Virus record (IMG/VR): IMGVR_UViG_3300022555_003222
Span: 1-64,000 of that record
Reading direction: 5' to 3' (one strand)
Length of the DNA: 64,000 bases
Source: a virus
Below are positions 1,816 through 64,000 of the stretch, piece by piece; position 1 is the first letter of the stretch, and every line of letters starts with the position of its first letter. The translations under genes and the position numbers were made by a program. Under the pieces are notes generated by a model that was given only the letters and a program-made list of their open reading frames with translations, was not told where the DNA came from and made no database searches.

Positions 1816-3297
1816 TTAGATCACGAAGTTAGCGATGGAGAGACGAGCGTAGAACTTAGCCCCCTCACGGAGGAGTTTTTTCCCGTAGCGTGTTAAAATT
1901 CCCTTACGTGGGCAGAAGCTCTCTGGATCGAGAACAACTGGCGTCTGGGTCAACGGAACGTATGGGCAATAGAAGTAACCACTATCCATGTAGCTGTCAC
2001 CCTTGTAACCCAAAAGGATCTGGCCCTGTGGGAACAACGGATCTTTGTACAATCTCCAACGATTGTTAACTGTACCTACATACTGAATACCCAAGCTGGA
2101 AGTGAAAGTCTCACTTGGAGCCGGTGCGAAACCAGCGGTCGCAGTTTCAAAAATTGAAGCTACTTCAGGGCTGGTCACCATCCAGTTTGCACCACCACGT
2201 AGAGTCTTTCTGTGGACTACGTTGCTGATTTCAACAACCTTCACATAGAGAGATTCATACTTTTCCTTGATGGTATCACCAAGGGCGGTGTTGAAATCCC
2301 AGCTAGAAACTGTACCGGCGTTATTACGGAGGTCCGTCAAAACTTCACGGTCGATTTCTAGGTTGATTTCTTGTGCTAACACTGCGGTCAATTCGGCCTC
2401 AGCGTCTAGGTTGTGCTGGGATCGTAGATCCTGTTGAGCCTCATAGCTCCACACAGCCTTTAGCTTACGGGTCTTGGCTGCAATCTCTTCTGATTCAACG
2501 ACTAGGTTGATCTCAGGAAGATCTTGCTGGCACTCAAGATTGTACTCGTAGTTGATAACAACCTTAACGAATGCATTTCCTGCTACCAACGCACCAGTGA
2601 TAGGCAAGGCCAATTCACCAGTTGTCGTATTTAGAGCACCAGTACCACCAGTAGTGATGGCATTCAATGCACCGATGTTCTGCGATGTTAGTGTGCTGGT
2701 AGAATCAATTACGAATGTGGACTGAACAGTGGTGCAAGTAGCAGCAGTTGTGCCTGCATACAAAGTACCAGTGACCGTACCAGCAATAACTGGAACGTGC
2801 TCTACCACGCCGAAATTAATGGTGCCTGCGACTGGATATCCTACAGCAGCAGTCGGCTCACCCTGGATGAACTGATGGCTGTAATAGATGTCCAAGTTTG
2901 CATCACCAGATGCACGCTGCATCAAGGTGTTTGCGTCATCATTTGGGTAACCTGCGTTGTTATCTTGACCACGGGTTGCACCCTTGTTGGTCGAATAACG
3001 GAATCTTAGGTAGTACACCAAACCAGTTGGGCCAAGCAACGGCTGTACGGATACAACCTTATTGGCGATCAACTGAGGATAAATCCTTCTTACCAACGGA
3101 ATCGAGATTCTCTTGAACTGAGCAATATCACTTGTGTCAGTTGCAACCTCGTTCATAAGTCTCTGGTTTTCTAGAAGTACAGCGGTGCAGGAACGTTCGT
3201 ATTTGTCCTTGATGCCTTCTAGCAAACCAGTTTGTGACCAACGGCGTTCTAGCTCTTTGGCCTCGTTCAAAAATTTTGAATTTGCATTCATTATCAT
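1816..3297 (-). CDS. gp23: Major capsid protein (T4 gp23-like)
   Basis: Hallmark motifs LLENQ, IPLVRR, VSVQPLLGPTGLVYYLR, AKTRKLKAVWSYEAQQDLRSQHNLDAEAEL, EINLEIDRE, YKG...GYFYCPYVPL, SFCPRKGILTRYG. True start may be ATG 3291. Confidence 0.97.
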   Translation of the reverse strand: MIMNANSKFLNEAKELERRWSQTGLLEGIKDKYERSCTAVLLENQRLMNEVATDTSDIAQFKRISIPLVRRIYPQLIANKVVSVQPLLGPTGLVYYLRFRYSTNKGATRGQDNNAGYPNDDANTLMQRASGDANLDIYYSHQFIQGEPTAAVGYPVAGTINFGVVEHVPVIAGTVTGTLYAGTTAATCTTVQSTFVIDSTSTLTSQNIGALNAITTGGTGALNTTTGELALPITGALVAGNAFVKVVINYEYNLECQQDLPEINLVVESEEIAAKTRKLKAVWSYEAQQDLRSQHNLDAEAELTAVLAQEINLEIDREVLTDLRNNAGTVSSWDFNTALGDTIKEKYESLYVKVVEISNVVHRKTLRGGANWMVTSPEVASIFETATAGFAPAPSETFTSSLGIQYVGTVNNRWRLYKDPLFPQGQILLGYKGDSYMDSGYFYCPYVPLTQTPVVLDPESFCPRKGILTRYGKKLLREGAKFYARLSIANFVI

Positions 3298-3329: not shown

Positions 3330-4250
3330 TTAATCTTCGATGATGCCAGAAAGTACCTGCATTTGACGTAGGAAATCTGGATCGATTGATTCAACTAAGG
3401 CCATATCTGCCTCTTTGGCTTCCGACTTTTTGGCTGGTTCACTAAACTCAGCAATAATGCGGTCGGTAACCTTGTTTCCGCTCCCCTGTACTTTCTCGCC
3501 TTTCTTAATTTTTTCTTTTCTTTCTTCTGTAACCAAAGACTTCTTTGATTCAGTTAATACATGATTCATTTGACGTACTTGCTCATTAAGCTTATTGTTG
3601 TCCGTAGAAACACGGATGTTTTTAGCTTCGAGTAGACGGACTTTACCCTGTAGGTCTTGGACGCACTTATTAGACTCTTCAAGTCTGCTGCTGGTGGCCA
3701 ATGCGTAATCCTCGTCGGTAATATAACTACCGCAAATCTTAACGATATTGTCGAGGGCAACCTTGTGCTCAACCATGCGAGGATCATTAACGATATCTCG
3801 ACGTGCTTGCTCGTAGATTTCTTGACCCTTGAGTTGTAGGAATTGGTCGATCTTCTCAACCATGTAATCCTTCATCTCAGCCAACTTCTTGTCATACTCT
3901 TCATAAAGTTCGCTTTCGATATTGCCATTCTTGCCCTTTTCGGCTTGTAGCATTTGGAAAGCTTCTTCATAACCCTCTTCAAGGGCTGTTTCGAATTCAC
4001 TTCTCTGGGTTTCTAACCTTTGACGAAGTTCTTGAATGATACTACCGGCTTGATTATACCCTTCATAAGCTACCTTCTCTGACTCCTTCAATTCCTTTGA
4101 AAGGTCGGCATATGCTTCCTGGAGCTTGGTATTAAATTCCGCCTCAATTTCCTGGCGTGCCTCGGAAAGATATTCACCTACCGCAGCAGTAAAATCCTTA
4201 ACCTTGTCTTGAGGTACTAATTTGCTCAATGTTTCGACGATTTTATCCAT
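3330..4250 (-). CDS. Prohead core scaffold protein (T4 gp22-like)
   Basis: Acidic coiled-coil protein between the protease and the capsid gene; several L-x-E gp21-type sites. Confidence 0.8.
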   Translation of the reverse strand: MDKIVETLSKLVPQDKVKDFTAAVGEYLSEARQEIEAEFNTKLQEAYADLSKELKESEKVAYEGYNQAGSIIQELRQRLETQRSEFETALEEGYEEAFQMLQAEKGKNGNIESELYEEYDKKLAEMKDYMVEKIDQFLQLKGQEIYEQARRDIVNDPRMVEHKVALDNIVKICGSYITDEDYALATSSRLEESNKCVQDLQGKVRLLEAKNIRVSTDNNKLNEQVRQMNHVLTESKKSLVTEERKEKIKKGEKVQGSGNKVTDRIIAEFSEPAKKSEAKEADMALVESIDPDFLRQMQVLSGIIED

Positions 4251-4963
4251 TATCTAACCTCGCTTTTAATTTCTGCTGTTTTTTGTTTTACTATGCCTAA
4301 GCAAGCTAGCAGTAACGATGTTTCATTAATACTATCTATGCTCCTGGATTCATTTTTTTCTAAAGAACCGTAGATCGCTACGGATTCTTTCTTATCGTTC
4401 GCAATTCTTTCTTGGAAGGCAGCATTGGTAGAGGGATCGGCTACGCAATCAAATGTGATTAATTTGTAGCCTCTTTCAATTACTAAAATGCCATCTTCAT
4501 TTACTTTTCCATTACCTACGCCACGACTACTAATGCCGACACGAACGCCGTCGTTAATAAGTGATCGTAGTAATTTACCCATAGGCGTATTAAGCACGGA
4601 GCCTTCACCCATAAGCACTTTTCCATCCCACCACAACTTATTGATCTTGTGGGAAGCATCCTTGAAGTGAATGATAGAATCAGAAGGGTGATCTAGTTCA
4701 CCAATAAGACCATTCTGACCAATTGCTTCTTGCAACTTACCTACATTTTCATCTAGCACGTCAAACGGATATGATCTTTTATTTTTATTGATCGCATCCG
4801 CTTCCTGGAACTTGCCACGAAACTTTAATACTGGACTACCCTTTGTATCAGTAGACTCATGCAAATCCATTTCGTTGAGGATAGCAAAGCTACCATCACC
4901 GTAAAGGAGGCATTCGCTGTACCTTGTTCCAGGCACCATGCTATGTTCGTTTAATAACTGCAT
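4250..4963 (-). CDS. gp21: Prohead protease (T4 gp21-like)
   Basis: Motifs GKFQEADAINKNKRSYP, GELDHP, ASH, TPMG, GISSRGVG, LITFDCVADPST. Confidence 0.95.
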   Translation of the reverse strand: MQLLNEHSMVPGTRYSECLLYGDGSFAILNEMDLHESTDTKGSPVLKFRGKFQEADAINKNKRSYPFDVLDENVGKLQEAIGQNGLIGELDHPSDSIIHFKDASHKINKLWWDGKVLMGEGSVLNTPMGKLLRSLINDGVRVGISSRGVGNGKVNEDGILVIERGYKLITFDCVADPSTNAAFQERIANDKKESVAIYGSLEKNESRSIDSINETSLLLACLGIVKQKTAEIKSEVR

Positions 4964-4980: not shown

Positions 4981-6792
4981 TTATTGATCAACTACTAGAT
5001 CCGTTTCTGAGCCGTTCTTCATCTTGTAAGACTGTGGTGTAACAGCCTTCGGTACGTATGGATTCTGTAGATCCGGCCACGTATCCTTAGATGAGAACTG
5101 AGTGAGTAGATCGCTACCACCGGCTTTATCTGCACCCTTTTCACCCTTCATGGTGTATGTTCCAAACGGTTTCGGTACATATGGGTTGTTAAGTTCTGGA
5201 TAGGTGTCTCCGCCACCAATATTACCCCAGCTACGACTTCTCATTTCGTCGGCTAAACCATTGTGATAGCTCTTGCCATCAGATACCGGTGCTGAATCGC
5301 CCCAGTTACCTGTGAAATCAGATGCGGGAGCATAACCCACACGTGCTTTCTTAGCCATTTCGGGATGGTCACCTTGAATAGTGGTGTGAGGAGTGTTGGA
5401 TACATTCCAACCACTCATCTCAAGATTTGTTTCCACTAAATCTTCTAGCCAATCGGCTGCATTTTGAGCGATCTCTAGTGTTGGATCAATTTCTTGACGA
5501 ATTACAGCGCTGAGCGTATCCAATTGCTCGGATGCTTCATTCTGTACAGTTTGATTTCTGGTCTGACCAGCTACAACATGAACATGACGAATAGCTTCGT
5601 AAAGATCTACGAATACCTGCATGTCCAAGCGATCCCCTTCGTCCAAAGATGGGAAGAATTCATCTACCGTTTCTTTGAATTGGGCATACTTGTCATCACA
5701 TTCTGTACAGGGCTCAACACCGGCAAGACCCATGATCTTATTGACTCGATCAACATACGCACCGTGAGCCACTCTTAGAATGCCTTCGGCCATAAATGTG
5801 CATGTTTGATCGTCATAGTTTGTTGCATTAACCACATCCAATGCTTCTTTAATGCTGACAGATAACTCAGCTTGAGTAAGATAAAGAACTTGTGGCCACT
5901 TGCTAACGATATTTTCAATACTTTCTTCCAAAGCACTGTTGTCTGATAATGCGTTGTGACGCTTTAGTTCAGCCACAGCCTTGCAGAAGTTAATATCTTC
6001 CTTTAGATCGGCCTTGGCACCACTTCGCAACATCTTGCAATTGGTGTTAATGGTCTTCCAATCAAAGGTTTTGAGGGCGGATTCATTGCGAACTAGAACG
6101 CTTGGAATGCGAAGAGCAACCACGTTGCCCAACTCATCATGTTTGGCTACTGATTCACGAAGAACCGGCCCGTACTCTTTAATTCCAATGTATTGACTTA
6201 CGTTCTCGCATAAACGGAACCACTCTTCCAAAGCTTTCTTGTCTTTATCTTTCTTGAGATCCAAAGCCTTGGACTTATCACCCTTCTTCTTGTGTTTCTT
6301 CTTCTTTCCAAAGAATGGGAATTTATTCTCACCACATTCTTTGTCGTCTCCATCCTTCTTGTCTTTTTTATCCTTCTTCTTATCAAAGAATGGGAACTTG
6401 CCTTCTTTGAATAGACGGCGAGTAAGGGGAAGGGATAGATAATTATCTAGCAAAGACTCTGCTTTGCGATCATTGCTTTCCAGTAATGATTCCAACATAT
6501 CGGAGACAATTTGCTTCGCATTTTGTCTCTCTGTTTCTTCATTAATAACCAGTTGCTCGATGTTTTCAAAGGTTACATGCTTTGGTTGCACCTCATAATT
6601 AGCATGAACAAATGTTCCGCCAGGGGTGGCATATAGCACGTCTTCCGGGCCATAACAATGCAAAGATAAACCTTCTATCTGCAATGCGTTGGCAAGGACC
6701 GGTTCCGCCTCCACTAGCTCATTTGCAGCAGAAGATAGAGAGCTATTCTCCATTCTTTGAAAAACCTCGTAGTCTATGAGCTTTCTTTTCAT
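4981..6792 (-). CDS. Large prohead-core-like protein of unknown function
   Basis: 603-aa ORF with AGGAG SD, at the position of the T4 prohead core genes. Has a Lys-rich insert and a duplicated DTxPxLxNPYVPK motif. Confidence 0.7.
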   Translation of the reverse strand: MKRKLIDYEVFQRMENSSLSSAANELVEAEPVLANALQIEGLSLHCYGPEDVLYATPGGTFVHANYEVQPKHVTFENIEQLVINEETERQNAKQIVSDMLESLLESNDRKAESLLDNYLSLPLTRRLFKEGKFPFFDKKKDKKDKKDGDDKECGENKFPFFGKKKKHKKKGDKSKALDLKKDKDKKALEEWFRLCENVSQYIGIKEYGPVLRESVAKHDELGNVVALRIPSVLVRNESALKTFDWKTINTNCKMLRSGAKADLKEDINFCKAVAELKRHNALSDNSALEESIENIVSKWPQVLYLTQAELSVSIKEALDVVNATNYDDQTCTFMAEGILRVAHGAYVDRVNKIMGLAGVEPCTECDDKYAQFKETVDEFFPSLDEGDRLDMQVFVDLYEAIRHVHVVAGQTRNQTVQNEASEQLDTLSAVIRQEIDPTLEIAQNAADWLEDLVETNLEMSGWNVSNTPHTTIQGDHPEMAKKARVGYAPASDFTGNWGDSAPVSDGKSYHNGLADEMRSRSWGNIGGGDTYPELNNPYVPKPFGTYTMKGEKGADKAGGSDLLTQFSSKDTWPDLQNPYVPKAVTPQSYKMKNGSETDLVVDQ

Positions 6793-6937: not shown

Positions 6938-7276
6938 GTGAAAAGATTTAATGAATACGTTAAAATGCGAGAAGAAAACCAGTCGGCTCAACAGGATGAC
7001 GGGGCTTCTCCGGTTCCAGAAAAGGGTGCGCCCGATACACTTATTACCGCTATGAAGATAGCTTGTGATAAGTATAAAAATAGAACCAAACAATTTCTCA
7101 AAGAATTAAATGATTCTGATATTGATAAAGTATTAGGTCAATTATCAGATGATGTTGATGATGATTTTACCGGTCCTGTCCGTAGATCTGAACGGGACAG
7201 AAGTAATCACGATAACATGGTTATGATTCCAAAAGCAGATGGAAATTCTGGTGCCGATGGTGGCGGTGAAGATTAA
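6938..7276 (+). CDS. Acidic hypothetical protein with a capsid-targeting-like N-terminus (MKRFNEYVKMRE)
   Basis: 112-aa ORF with GTG start; ATAGATA box at 6895-6901 upstream. Confidence 0.7.
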   Translation: MKRFNEYVKMREENQSAQQDDGASPVPEKGAPDTLITAMKIACDKYKNRTKQFLKELNDSDIDKVLGQLSDDVDDDFTGPVRRSERDRSNHDNMVMIPKADGNSGADGGGED

Positions 7277-7354: not shown

Positions 7355-9898
7355 TTAACTACCGAATGTTGAATTCGGTTCTTCTCGATCCATCTCAGCA
7401 GACCAATTATGAATTTCAAGATCATATTTCTTGATTTCTTCTTCACTTGCATCTGCCAACGGTGCGCTATTTGAACCAGCCGCTCCACCAGGAGCCCCTT
7501 CAGGTTCTTTATCTTGTGGCGGCATTGGTGGCATTCCGCCCGGAGGAGGTCCACCTGGAGGTGCGCCACCAGGAGGTGCTCCTCCTTCAGGCGGTAACAT
7601 TGGATTTGGCCCACCGGTTTCTGTGCCCATTTGTGGGTCTGAAGATCCAGGGGCTCCCACCCCAAGCAATTGTGGATTCTGACCAATAATTTGTAGTTTA
7701 AGATCTTCAAGTTTCTGGATTTTATTACGAGCTATCATTTCTTGTGCTTCATCTTCTGAATATTTCATCCATTTGGTTAAAATATCAAAATCAGACATCA
7801 ACAAAGAACCTTTGAGTCCATTAGCATTGCCAATTCTGGCAGTGACAATTTCTTGCCAGCTTAATTCACGCCAAGCCGAAGGTGGAGTCATAATGATTTG
7901 CAAATCATCATAAAGCTCTTCTGGGAAACCTCTTAGTTGTAAATGACGTTCCGCTAATTGAAGTAGGCCATCTACTAAATAACTTTGTAATCTCTCAATA
8001 AGTTTAGAAAACTTCACATCACGTGCTGACAAAGTGATTCTTGTGGCCTGTGGGTCTTCGCTAGAATTGTAATTGGCCGGTAAGTTAAGGGCTGTATATA
8101 ATTTATTGCGGAAATAAACAGCATCATCAATTTCACCTAGATTCTGTGCGCCAGGGAGAGTTTCCACTCTGGTATTTGCATTCTGACGAATGGGAATCCA
8201 GTAATCTTCGTCGGCTGATGGTGCATGCCATCTTTCTTCTACAGAAGACGCTCCAGGAGCCCCACGGGCATTTGCTACTTTCTTCTTTCTAAATTGATCT
8301 TTCATTCTTTCAATGAAAGATTCAGCTTTGAATGGAGGCAACTGTCCTACGTCAATATAAAATACTCTTCGTTCGGGTGCTCGGGTTAATCGATACACAA
8401 CCATTGCATCTTCCATTAATCTTAATTGATGCGCTGGACCACGTGCCGGTTCGATTAAACTAACGCCATAGGGATAGAAACTCTTTCTATCATCCCCGAT
8501 TTTAACATGCACCATTTGCTCCGGTGCAAATCTAAGGGCTGTTGCTTGTTGTAAATCAGATTCCGTAGCTTCGGGCACAGGTGCCCGTGTTAAGCTTTGA
8601 TAATCAGGCCCTTCATTAGATTGCTGGAATTCAATTAACTTACCTTTTGTGGTTTCAATACGATATACACTATCAGGTGGCAGTTCTTGTACTTTGAGGA
8701 TTCCATCCTTGGGAGCGTCTGGATCAATGATCAATTCCACAAATAGATCTCCAAACGTACACACTTGCTTCATCCATAGCCAACCTTTGCGATCTAGATT
8801 AAGCATTTTTCTGTGGAAGAACAACCACTCTAATTCATCCTTAATTTCATCGTTTCCCACTTTAATTTCAAACAAATGATCATTCTCGCCCTTTTGGCAA
8901 TTATGAAAAATAACTGACTCGCCACAGAAGTTTGCGTGTTTTTCTACTGATAAATCATAAACGTCTGTAGTTCTCCATTGCTCTACATGAAGAACACGTC
9001 TGTGGTCTGCCTTTCTGCCAAGTTGATGCACTTCAGCTAATGAGAATCCTTCACGGTGCAACCAATCTTTAATGCTATTCCATTGATAGCCCATTAATCT
9101 AGCTGTTTCCAGAGTGGACATTCCCTCCCCAAGAAGGCGTACAGCTTTGTTGATTTTCTCAAACTTCTTTTCCTTCCGACCAGTTCGCCATTCATCAAGA
9201 AACTGTCGCTCATGTTTCCAACCATCGGTGAATGTGAATATTCTAGGGAATTGTCCTTTGGGAAGATTGTTAAGATATCTCTTGGGTTTCACTTGATAGA
9301 ACGGCATGAGTTCATCACCATGTTCTAATTCTCCAGCCGCTTTCCACGTAGCATCTCGCATGAGCATGCGATGATCAGGTGTGACTACAAATGCTGTACC
9401 ATCGTCTAAGCTTACACGCACTGTCTCAGCCGTTTTAACTAATCTAGGATTATAAGCGTAGCCTAATGTATAATCTTTTTTATCAAAGTCCCAACAATAT
9501 ACTAAAAATCGTTCGTCTTTTTTATTCTCTGCAAACCATCTGATTTCTTTTAGCCCATAAAACGGAGTGGCTATTTTTTCCCATCCTGCCAAACATGCTT
9601 CATCTGCGAAGACTGTCATGGCATTTTCAATTTCGGGAACATTACGCAGACGTTCATATTCTTTGTAACGACTTTGCCGGTTTGTAACTGTTGATAAATC
9701 TATAAAATCATTGCTATCTCTGAGACGAACGAGTCCACGTCCACCTCCCCAATAGCTGCCATCTTGTGCCCGAATATCGGGGATGGCGTCTGGCACGGTT
9801 ACGCCCGCACCAGTAAGATCTCTTATTCGCTTGCTCTTTTCTAAAGGATCAGGCGTAAAAGAGTATGAAAACAATTTGTAAAAATCGTACCAAGCCAT
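7355..9898 (-). CDS. gp20: Portal protein (T4 gp20-like) containing an intein
   Basis: Motifs QLRLMEDAMVVYRLTRAPERRVFYIDVGQLP, EDYWIP, ETLPGAQNLGEIDD, YFRNKLYTAL. Pro/Gly-rich C-terminal tail. Confidence 0.95.
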   Translation of the reverse strand: MAWYDFYKLFSYSFTPDPLEKSKRIRDLTGAGVTVPDAIPDIRAQDGSYWGGGRGLVRLRDSNDFIDLSTVTNRQSRYKEYERLRNVPEIENAMTVFADEACLAGWEKIATPFYGLKEIRWFAENKKDERFLVYCWDFDKKDYTLGYAYNPRLVKTAETVRVSLDDGTAFVVTPDHRMLMRDATWKAAGELEHGDELMPFYQVKPKRYLNNLPKGQFPRIFTFTDGWKHERQFLDEWRTGRKEKKFEKINKAVRLLGEGMSTLETARLMGYQWNSIKDWLHREGFSLAEVHQLGRKADHRRVLHVEQWRTTDVYDLSVEKHANFCGESVIFHNCQKGENDHLFEIKVGNDEIKDELEWLFFHRKMLNLDRKGWLWMKQVCTFGDLFVELIIDPDAPKDGILKVQELPPDSVYRIETTKGKLIEFQQSNEGPDYQSLTRAPVPEATESDLQQATALRFAPEQMVHVKIGDDRKSFYPYGVSLIEPARGPAHQLRLMEDAMVVYRLTRAPERRVFYIDVGQLPPFKAESFIERMKDQFRKKKVANARGAPGASSVEERWHAPSADEDYWIPIRQNANTRVETLPGAQNLGEIDDAVYFRNKLYTALNLPANYNSSEDPQATRITLSARDVKFSKLIERLQSYLVDGLLQLAERHLQLRGFPEELYDDLQIIMTPPSAWRELSWQEIVTARIGNANGLKGSLLMSDFDILTKWMKYSEDEAQEMIARNKIQKLEDLKLQIIGQNPQLLGVGAPGSSDPQMGTETGGPNPMLPPEGGAPPGGAPPGGPPPGGMPPMPPQDKEPEGAPGGAAGSNSAPLADASEEEIKKYDLEIHNWSAEMDREEPNSTFGS
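8900..9595 (-). mobile_element. Intein (232 aa) in the portal gene
   Basis: N-terminal CLAGWEKIATP after ADEA, block B VTPDH, C-terminal VYDLSVEKHANF...IFHN followed by Cys+1. Confidence 0.92.
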
Positions 9899-19508: not shown

Positions 19509-19556
19509 ATATTTATTGTATCAAATTTTTCAATAATGTGGAAGATAGATAGTAGT

Positions 19557-20033
19557 ATGAGAAGTTTTCAAGAATATGTTGTTTTGCGTGAAGCAATGGA
19601 TGATATAGTGGTCGGAAATATTGTGGTTCCTAGAAGGGAATTAATCATTCGCTTTGATGCAAGTGGTGGAGCCGGTGGTCAAAATGTTAATAAACTTGCC
19701 ACAAAAGCCACATTGAAATGGCCAGTTGCATCCAGCGTAGCTTGGGTCGGGCACGAAGAGATATTACATCGATTCTTATCCATGTTTGCCAATCGTATTA
19801 ATAGAGAAGGTGACTTGGTAATTCAATCCCAGCAGGAGCGTAAGCAACGACAAAATCTCAATGCCGCCATTGCTAAATTAGCAGATTTAATAGCACAAGC
19901 GGCCGACATTCCAATGCAACGCATTGACACCAGACCGACCCAAGGATCTGTTGAACGACGCATTAGAGACAAAGACAAAATGCGATTAAAGAAATCGCAA
20001 CGATCTGGTGGTTGGCAAAACGATTGGTCTTAG
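19557..20033 (+). CDS. arfB: Alternative ribosome-rescue factor B (ArfB/YaeJ peptidyl-tRNA hydrolase)
   Basis: SGGAGGQNVNKLATKATL (GGQ motif), RINREGDLVIQSQQERKQRQN, and basic tail RIDTRPTQGSVERRIRDK...KKSQR. Confidence 0.92.
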   Translation: MRSFQEYVVLREAMDDIVVGNIVVPRRELIIRFDASGGAGGQNVNKLATKATLKWPVASSVAWVGHEEILHRFLSMFANRINREGDLVIQSQQERKQRQNLNAAIAKLADLIAQAADIPMQRIDTRPTQGSVERRIRDKDKMRLKKSQRSGGWQNDWS

Positions 20034-20882: not shown

Positions 20883-21908
20883 ATGGCAATTGATTTTGAT
20901 CGATTTCTTAACTGGGCCGAATCTCGATTTCCTACTGTCATCGTCAAGGGCGATGAGGTACGGGTAGATTCTATTTTTGAAGAAGACCATAAGCAACACA
21001 TGTGGTGTAATCCTTATGGAGGAAAAAACAATCGAGAAAATGGCGTATTTCGTTGTTGGAAAACAGATCGTCGGGGCAGCCTTATTACTCTGGTCATGCT
21101 GCGTGACCATTGTGCTTACGAAGAAGCCTGTGAAATTTTAGAAACTGGCGATGTCAACCTTGCTCGTATGGAACGGGAAGTTGATACTTTTTTTGATGAA
21201 AAAGCCACAATCGACACACCAGCCCTGCCGCTGGCAGGGCTGGTGATTCCCCCATACAGTTATTTAATTCAGGAATTATCTTCAAGTAACTTATATCGTG
21301 TACAATCTGAGATCTATTTATTTGAACGTAAATTAGATACCGCAGATTTGTATATTTGCACTGCCGGGGAAGATTACAAAAACAGAATTATTGTACCCTA
21401 CTATGATCGCACTGGGAAGCTTATTTATTTCAATGGGCGATATATCGGTGCATCGACCAAAGTCAGTAAATACAGAGGCCCATCTAAAGAATGCGGAATT
21501 GGCAAAGGTGACGTTTTATATTTTCCAAGCTGGCCCACCAGTGGAAATAAAGTATATCTTACTGAAGGCGAATTCGATGCTATGTCTGTTATTAAATCAG
21601 GACTCAATGCGGGTGCATTCGGTGGCAAAGCTTTGAGTGAAGAGCAGGCTACGCTATTGCGGGGGTATTCTGTGGTGCTGTGTCTGGATAATGATCCCGC
21701 TGGAAAAACTGCATTACCGGTACTGGGAGATTTCCTATTGAGACAGGGATTTACAGACATTGGATTCATTCGTCCACCCAAACAATATAAAGATTGGAAT
21801 GAAATGCTGCAAAAAACCAACCCACGGATGATTAATCTGTACATTACCCATAATGAGAAGCGGTATGATCCGTGGGCTGGCGAAAGTTTAAGATTTAAGG
21901 ATCTTTAA
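20883..21908 (+). CDS. DNA primase (DnaG/TOPRIM type)
   Basis: NRIIVPYYD, YFNGR, KY, YLTEGEFDAMS, LCLDNDPAG, KDWNE. Confidence 0.93.
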   Translation: MAIDFDRFLNWAESRFPTVIVKGDEVRVDSIFEEDHKQHMWCNPYGGKNNRENGVFRCWKTDRRGSLITLVMLRDHCAYEEACEILETGDVNLARMEREVDTFFDEKATIDTPALPLAGLVIPPYSYLIQELSSSNLYRVQSEIYLFERKLDTADLYICTAGEDYKNRIIVPYYDRTGKLIYFNGRYIGASTKVSKYRGPSKECGIGKGDVLYFPSWPTSGNKVYLTEGEFDAMSVIKSGLNAGAFGGKALSEEQATLLRGYSVVLCLDNDPAGKTALPVLGDFLLRQGFTDIGFIRPPKQYKDWNEMLQKTNPRMINLYITHNEKRYDPWAGESLRFKDL

Positions 21909-61519: not shown

Positions 61520-62014
61520 TTAACTTCTGCTGTGAACCAAGTTAGCATAATCTGTTGCCCCACCGGATTTAACCATAACATTACCCCACGGGTCACTCTT
61601 CTTATCAAATTCCGAAGCTCGCAGATCTTTCTCTGCTTTACCACTTCGCTTAAAGAAAGCAGCCACTTCTTCGCCAATAGCTTTCATAACCTCTTTACCC
61701 GCTTTTTCTTCATGCACATTATCAGCGATGAGATCGTTATACATGCTTTCCACATCAAGCATATAAGCGGTGCCATAAGGATGGGTGCTGGCTTCTTTTT
61801 GAATTCGATAGGCCATAGTTCCAGCTATTTTATATATGCGAATACCATCGAAAGATGTTTGCCCGCCCGGATTTTTGGCAAACACATACGGATCTTCCTC
61901 TTCACAGAAATTTTGTGTGGTTACACCATGTTTCCTTAAAACCTTTTCGATAATTTTTAATTGTCGCTTAGATTCTCTGGTTTTCTTGTCAACGAATTCA
62001 CGAAATGTTTTCAT
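61520..62014 (-). CDS. Hypothetical protein with a capsid-targeting-like N-terminus (MKTFREFV)
   Basis: AGGAG SD; 164 aa. Confidence 0.75.
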   Translation of the reverse strand: MKTFREFVDKKTRESKRQLKIIEKVLRKHGVTTQNFCEEEDPYVFAKNPGGQTSFDGIRIYKIAGTMAYRIQKEASTHPYGTAYMLDVESMYNDLIADNVHEEKAGKEVMKAIGEEVAAFFKRSGKAEKDLRASEFDKKSDPWGNVMVKSGGATDYANLVHSRS

Positions 62015-63885: not shown

Positions 63886-64000
63886 ATGAAGACATTCAAA
63901 GAATGGTTAATAATACAAGAAACGTCACACCTTGGATATCCATCAACATCATATGGCCAAGGCATGAGACAACAAGAACCAAATTTGTTCAAACGTGTGG
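63886..64000 (+). CDS. 5' end of a protein starting MKTFKEWLIIQE (runs off the window; not in the ORF track)
   Basis: ATG 63886 preceded by AGGA; frame open to the window end. Confidence 0.7.
   Translation, partial: MKTFKEWLIIQETSHLGYPSTSYGQGMRQQEPNLFKRV

Follow-up and report, generated by a model that had tools for sequence, protein, structure and literature searches.

ArfB is a peptidyl-tRNA hydrolase that acts without regard to the codon and rescues ribosomes that have run to the 3' end of a truncated mRNA and stalled there. The phage proteins known to be injected into host cells target restriction enzymes, RNA polymerase or the cell envelope. In phage T4, packaging of internal head proteins depends on a short capsid targeting sequence (CTS). 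The propeptide of IpII and IpIII is MKTYQEFIAE (PMC8442874), ten CTS residues are enough for packaging, and targeting acts mainly through residues 4 and 7 and processing through residues 8 and 10 (PMC9026906). The CTS-addressed internal proteins of T-even phages are viewed as a varied anti-defence cargo (PMC3012670, PMC9026906), and jumbo phages encode the peptidyl-tRNA hydrolases PTH2 and Pth1 (PMC7824862). Here we describe an ArfB gene in IMG/VR virus record IMGVR_UViG_3300022555_003222, positions 1 to 64,000 (here referred to as the window), whose product begins with a leader resembling the T4 CTS. By analogy with T4, we give a probability of roughly 0.5 to the reading that this leader is a T4-style propeptide which takes ArfB into the prohead, that a gp21-type protease cuts it off and that the basic ArfB is ejected together with the DNA.

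The ArfB gene and its leader

The open reading frame (ORF) at 19557-20033 (plus strand) encodes 158 residues and ends with a stop codon at 20031-20033. Its product scored 55 bits against Pfam RF-1 (PF00472; cut-off 35) and passed the NCBIfam ArfB equivalog NF006718 with 112.7 bits (cut-off 100). The GGQ catalytic motif, G40, G41 and Q42 of the 158-residue form (19674-19682, plus strand), falls in columns that are invariant in an alignment of 44 sequences, and the basic C-terminal tail, residues 122-149 (19920-20003, plus strand), aligns with residues 105-132 of Escherichia coli ArfB. The tail residues required in the E. coli protein, R118, L119, K122, K129 and R132 (PMC3950681), match R135, I136, K139, K146 and R149 in this alignment, that is, four are identical and one is changed from Leu to Ile. 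An AlphaFold model based on the 44-sequence alignment (mean predicted local distance difference test score 84.7) has the ArfB fold, a stand-alone GGQ domain without codon-recognition domains, and places a short helix at residues 4-13 before this domain. Its top Foldseek match is ribosome-bound E. coli ArfB (6yss_y, E = 2e-9), with ICT1 also among the top matches; among proteins of solved structure, ICT1/mL62 and E. coli ArfB come out as the best relatives. Moreover, a variant strain in one lake metagenome run shows nine in-frame differences, eight synonymous and one non-synonymous; the variant contigs have zero differences within the leader and hence are uninformative on its selection. PHROGs contains no family for ArfB or for the neighbouring proteins. 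By all these sequence features, the product of 19557-20033 is a complete, working-looking ArfB, and the intact GGQ domain and basic tail described in an earlier note on this DNA are confirmed.

Three in-frame ATGs, at 19536, 19557 and 19596, are present in the frame that ends at 20033. Residue 5 of E. coli ArfB aligns with residue 19 of the 158-residue form, so the canonical start lies at about residue 15 and residues 1-12 or 1-13 are extra, in agreement with the claim of the same note that a leader precedes the normal ArfB start. This leader or predicted propeptide, residues 1-12 (19557-19592, plus strand), contains Phe4, Gln5, Glu6, Tyr7, Val8 and Leu10-Arg11-Glu12, and the hydrophobic-x-Glu sites of the whole ArfB are confined to it. 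The predicted cut after Glu12 would give a protein beginning two residues ahead of the canonical ArfB start, with residues 13-158 and the stop codon at 19593-20033 (plus strand), 146 residues, a mass of 16.4 kDa and an isoelectric point of 10.4. The upstream ATG (19536-19538, plus strand), from which ORF callers obtain a 165-residue form, is probably not the start; we rejected it because the homologues have their starts at the equivalent of 19557.

We then analyzed the conservation of the leader among homologues in a search that covered 5.8 billion proteins. Nine close relatives were obtained, with 51-100% identity and lengths of 147-170 residues, and the next homologues are shorter, cellular-type ArfBs with at most 45% identity. 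The leader is kept in seven of the nine (six recovered by the pattern and P0004 by eye). Of the other two, P0006 was called from an internal Met and P0003 differs at its N-terminus. The leader does not occur in any of the 111 other listed homologues. Among viral contigs of IMG/VR, a scan with the single protein gave distant matches only, while an alignment-based scan recovered the loci L084-L088 among ten matching loci in total; all five with 41-55% identity bear the leader, and the remaining five, with at most 38% identity, are without it. Thus the comparison of phage and cellular N-termini that the earlier note had proposed finds the leader conserved in the phage clade and absent from the cellular-type homologues. 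In addition, none of L085-L088 offers another Met between the leader and the GGQ domain. Translation at these loci must therefore include the leader, and this bears directly on the concern raised in that note that the true start might lie downstream. Arg11 is encoded by CGT in the window and by AGA in L084, i.e. the codon has changed and the residue has stayed the same. Taken together, these comparisons indicate that the leader is translated and under selection.

The ten closest tagged sequences, which come from viral contigs or are metagenome proteins, form one clade with support of 100/98 in a maximum-likelihood tree. All twelve tagged sequences group as a single branch with support of only 73/78, and a single origin of the twelve is possible. 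A tblastn search with ArfB against 50,697 phage records gave two weak matches at 36% identity, one of them to a Salmonella genome record, and a metagenome scan returned 80 loci of cellular type with at most 43% identity.

The internal ATG at 19596-19598 (plus strand), which encodes Met14, could enter the interpretation in two ways. First, it could be the sole start of an ordinary phage-borne ArfB, the leader being untranslated 5' sequence. A start at this codon would yield the canonical ArfB length, it is the Met from which P0006 was called, and neither this ATG nor that at 19557 has a good ribosome-binding site; nevertheless, we give this explanation hardly any credence and consider a start only at 19596 unlikely, given that the leader peptide is conserved with changed codons down to 41% identity, that L085-L088 offer no such Met, that the 111 other homologues are without the leader, and that the N-termini of the leader family always begin at the start codon. 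Second, two products could be made, a tagged precursor from 19557 that is packaged and an untagged ArfB from Met14 that acts in the cytoplasm. This is quite improbable as well. Met14 lies one residue before the canonical start position, and the Met is present in 7 of the 14 clade sequences (window/P0001, P0002, P0006, P0007, P0008, P0009 and L084) but missing in P0003, P0004, P0005 and L085-L088, so it is kept in only part of the clade and may be a remnant of the ancestral start. An essential internal start is known in T4 gp21 (PMC9026906), whereas no Shine-Dalgarno-like sequence is found at a usable distance before 19596.

CTS-like tags in a phage with a T4-type head

The ArfB leader resembles the T4 CTS in its aromatic residues Phe4 and Tyr7, in Val8 and in the Leu10-Arg11-Glu12 cut motif. 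The start MKTYQEFIAE of IpII and IpIII was also read directly from the T4 record, and the first six residues of the ArfB homologue P0002 are those of T4 IpI. In T4 itself, gene 61.1 (L106:18966-19130, minus strand), located by the primase gene, encodes a 54-residue hypothetical protein, gp61.1, with a CTS-like start ending in hydrophobic-x-Glu.

The tag is not restricted to ArfB, since at least 15 other proteins begin with a tag of the same type. The core pattern F-x-[EKQRSAT]-[WYF]-[LIVMC] occurs 22 times in the 39,712 residues of 207 crude ORFs. Of these occurrences, 14 are found among the first 26 residues, where 3.0 would be expected (binomial P = 7.6e-8); the fourteen include loose fits, namely a primase, a helicase and one small ORF. 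We tabulated 18 tagged starts across 131 kb. Their conserved residues use varied codons, a pattern that favours a signal recognized as a peptide, and the predicted propeptides are 8-17 residues long and always end in hydrophobic-x-Glu. A looser pattern anchored at the start has a high background (14 proximal matches in 100 kb of T4; in 86.6 kb of this contig, 27), and it was used only as a control, in which it recovers IpII and IpIII, and not for counts; a stricter pattern missed true cases. Proteins other than ArfB also bear ArfB-type tags in the relatives G001, G003 and G005.

The tagged proteins in the window include one of 112 residues with a GTG start in the head module (6938-7276, plus strand), a basic one of 61 residues (18798-18983, minus strand) with TATATA 4 nucleotides before its start, one of 164 residues (61520-62014, minus strand) and one of 225 residues whose first six residues are those of T4 IpI (63886-64000, plus strand, running to position 64563 of the contig). 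Farther along the contig, a tag is found on a PolyA_pol nucleotidyltransferase of the CCA-adding type with 520 residues (L092:4634-6196, i.e. contig 64634-66196, plus strand), and another on a HAD_SAK_1 RNA-repair phosphatase encoded next to it (contig 67825-68553). A looser, tag-like N-terminus is carried by a 2H phosphoesterase (10527-11102, minus strand), which is Acb1-like or RNA-ligase-like (Pfam 2_5_RNA_ligase2, 38.8 bits; Acb1, 29.8 bits). Its gene sits between those of the terminase and the portal; for comparison, the Acb1 gene of T4, 57B, adjoins ipI. Two further proteins with tag-like N-termini, at 16569-18041 (plus strand) and contig 78154-79062 (minus strand), contain HExxH metalloprotease-like motifs and match no family in Pfam or PHROGs. 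The Toprim primase gene at 20883-21908 (plus strand) follows ArfB, an order kept in G001, and its N-terminus fits the tag pattern, as does that of its counterpart in G001 (22709, plus strand). Either the tag extends to the primase, or some matches to the pattern are false positives, and this matters for the meaning of the tag.

The head genes of this phage are of the T4 type. The window is the first 64 kb of one viral contig of 130,808 bp with 42% G+C, for which CheckV estimates a completeness of 26%, implying a genome of about 500 kb. It encodes a gp23-type major capsid protein (1816-3297, minus strand; Pfam Gp23, 285.5 bits), a gp21-type prohead core serine protease (4250-4963, minus strand; Pfam Peptidase_S77, 95.6 bits with a cut-off of 27; head maturation protease phrog_207, E = 7.7e-46) and a gp20-type portal with an intein (7355-9898, minus strand; Pfam Portal_T4, 243.9 bits; Intein_splicing, 48.8 bits), and a T4-type large terminase is encoded on the same contig. 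The stretch is present in freshwater and lake metagenome runs, and a megablast search found no near-identical or similar cultured phage. The source is an uncultured giant phage of fresh water whose head is of the T4 type, and the gp21-type protease is the enzyme expected to cut the leader. Residue 58 of the capsid protein aligns with residue 23 of T4 gp23* in an alignment with the PDB structure, and four hydrophobic-x-Glu sites lie within its N-terminal 50 residues.

Some other features of this region were recorded. In the portal gene, the intein (residues 155-333) precedes the Portal_T4 domain. Between the protease and the portal region, a gene at 4981-6792 (minus strand) encodes a protein of 603 residues with lysine-rich stretches and many hydrophobic-x-Glu sites; it has no family match in Pfam or PHROGs and is likely a prohead core or internal protein. 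The 86-residue protein encoded at 18541-18801 (plus strand) consists from about residue 20 almost entirely of Asp and Glu, with few Trp, Leu, Asn, Val and Tyr, and could be a DNA mimic or an acidic protein that fills the core.

The size of the tag family raises another explanation, which we regard as rather unlikely: the leader is translated but serves a different shared role, for example docking on a phage hub, chaperone or compartment, or the control of stability or translation, and ArfB is cytoplasmic in the producing cell only, where it keeps ribosomes free during the degradation of host mRNA or RNA cutting by defence systems. As many as 18 tabulated starts in 131 kb, perhaps including a primase with a tag-like N-terminus that G001 shares, would suit such a role, and huge phages carry RF1/2, RRF, tmRNA, SmpB and CCA-adding enzyme as cytoplasmic products (PMC7162821). 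However, at positions 4, 7 and 8 and in the glutamate the tag agrees with the T4 CTS as defined by experiment, and it ends in the cut motif of a protease family that this phage encodes. The constant hydrophobic-x-Glu end of tags that vary from 8 to 17 residues is also what removable propeptides should show, and the codon variation speaks against a purely nucleotide-level signal.

Candidate promoter elements and proposed delivery

A TAGATA box, a candidate phage -10-like promoter element, lies at 19546-19551 (plus strand), 5 nucleotides before the ATG at 19557. In the 60-nucleotide regions upstream of 93 genes in the first 86.6 kb, TATATA is present in 17 and TAGATA in 13, against 1.9 expected for each, and AAGGAG, a ribosome-binding site, in 11 against 1.2 expected. 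The TATATA or TAGATA boxes are found upstream of the terminase gene, a head-module gene, a baseplate-like gene and many tagged genes, while the last 44 kb of the contig have a different, longer upstream motif; a non-early promoter class TA[TG]ATA shared with structural genes is therefore plausible from these distributions. The T4 late promoter is TATAAATA and depends on gp55. Instead of this octamer, the upstream regions here have TA[TG]ATA with A or T as the next base. A scan for sigma-70 promoters found none on the plus strand before ArfB, with 4 sites against 4.2 expected in shuffled sequences. In the relatives, L084 has TATATT 20 nucleotides upstream together with a ribosome-binding site, and in L085-L088 the ArfB gene follows closely behind the preceding gene.

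If the box is used, its distance of only 5 nucleotides from the ATG would give a leaderless or nearly leaderless mRNA. TA[TG]ATA also lies 4-7 nucleotides before starts lacking a Shine-Dalgarno sequence at window positions 18983, 29992 and 63834 (minus strand) and 15282 (plus strand), and at contig positions 79062 (minus strand), 84688 (plus strand) and 67825 (plus strand). Genes with this arrangement, five of them tagged, are candidates for leaderless mRNAs. The contig from 86600 to 130808 (L093-L095) is a G+C-richer array of tiny ORFs behind a repeated longer motif ending in TGTATAAC, and many of the crude ORFs starting with Met-Tyr-Asn in this part are artefacts of that motif. One tRNA-Glu gene is located there at L093 16325-16396.

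From what is observed, namely the identity of ArfB, its conserved translated tag, the CTS likeness, the tag family and the T4-type head with its protease, we infer expression timing, packaging, cleavage, ejection and purpose. The precursor would be made together with the head proteins, and the propeptide would carry it into the scaffolding core of the prohead. The gp21-type protease would then cut after Leu-Arg-Glu12, and the basic ArfB of 146 residues, near its native length, would stay in the DNA-filled head and enter the cell along with the DNA. Delivered in this way, ArfB would release ribosomes trapped on cleaved mRNA, which may be produced by defence RNases and toxins or by the degradation of host mRNA during takeover. 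As the purpose of delivery, counter-defence and the freeing of ribosomes from degraded host mRNA are equally good readings.

Several observations weigh against delivery of ArfB in the capsid. A large set of tagged proteins, maybe including the primase, fits capsid cargo less well. The glutamate of the ArfB leader is at position 12, whereas that of T4 IpIII is at position 10. After ejection, a protein that has kept its tag, or that was stored unfolded, might fail to work. A prohead protease was found in none of five related records, fragments of only 4-19% completeness and thus uninformative, so that the T4-type protease is known from this contig only; a gp55-like late sigma factor had no match in the contig, which at 26% completeness is equally uninformative. 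Finally, the TAGATA before ArfB is followed by G, while 14 of the 15 other upstream copies are followed by A or T, and it is not kept in the relatives. Two claims of the earlier note are thereby narrowed. Its packaging tag gains from the CTS anatomy in a phage with a gp21-type protease, and the encapsidation of ArfB is a prediction from these features; its late-type promoter stands as far as the position of the box and the enrichment of the hexamer are concerned, while the atypical flank and the relatives without the box make this copy a weak candidate promoter.

The tags on other enzymes suggest an extended form of delivery, which we consider possible and somewhat doubtful: the capsid may be pre-loaded with a translation kit of ArfB, the CCA-adding enzyme, the HAD phosphatase and perhaps the 2H phosphoesterase, all addressed by T4-type propeptides and delivered with the DNA. 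If so, ribosomes and tRNAs hit by RNase immunity or by the phage's own host shut-off would be restored before phage gene expression.

Comparison with known systems

A full-text literature search brought up neither a phage ArfB with a tag nor a release factor delivered by virions, the latter in line with the statement of the earlier note that it was aware of none; such absence is not proven. The name ArfB is absent from the main text of PMC7824862, and the supplements of PMC7824862 and PMC7162821 may list ArfB-like genes. An injected release factor, if true, would extend the targets of injected proteins to the ribosome, and the phage would counter abortive-infection RNases and toxins in the first seconds, before its own gene expression. 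The tag would also allow the injected proteins of uncultured giant phages that have T4-type heads to be predicted from sequence alone. If the tag does not address proteins to the capsid, at least 15 unrelated proteins still share a conserved N-terminal signal that needs explaining.

Like bacterial ArfB (YaeJ) and mitochondrial ICT1/mL62, the protein described here consists of a GGQ domain, a linker and a basic C-terminal helix. It differs from them in being encoded by a phage, in its 12-residue N-terminal addition and in its identity of at most 45% to the cellular-type homologues. With the genes for translation and rescue that huge and jumbo phages carry it shares the predicted capacity to keep ribosomes or tRNAs usable, which is read as a counter to attacks on translation (PMC7162821, PMC7824862), but the rescue genes are described, in the passages of those papers that deal with them, as cytoplasmic products without a packaging address.

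The CTS-bearing internal proteins of T4 are similar in more respects. Their propeptide is likewise short, positions 4 and 7 being aromatic and position 8 hydrophobic, it has a Glu cut site, and within one phage it is found on proteins that are otherwise unrelated. Both phages have a gp21-type protease, a gp23-type shell and a gp20-type portal, and the predicted mature ArfB is small and basic like the T4 internal proteins. The differences are that the phage here is uncultured, with a genome of about 500 kb (calculated from 131 kb at 26%) and packaging predicted from its genes, that its tag family is far larger and includes RNA-repair enzymes, and that its predicted cargo includes a translation factor, a kind of protein that the texts cited above do not mention among the cargo of T4. 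T4 nevertheless offers precedents for both aspects of the proposed delivery, an injected enzyme in Alt and an injected anti-defence protein in IPI*.

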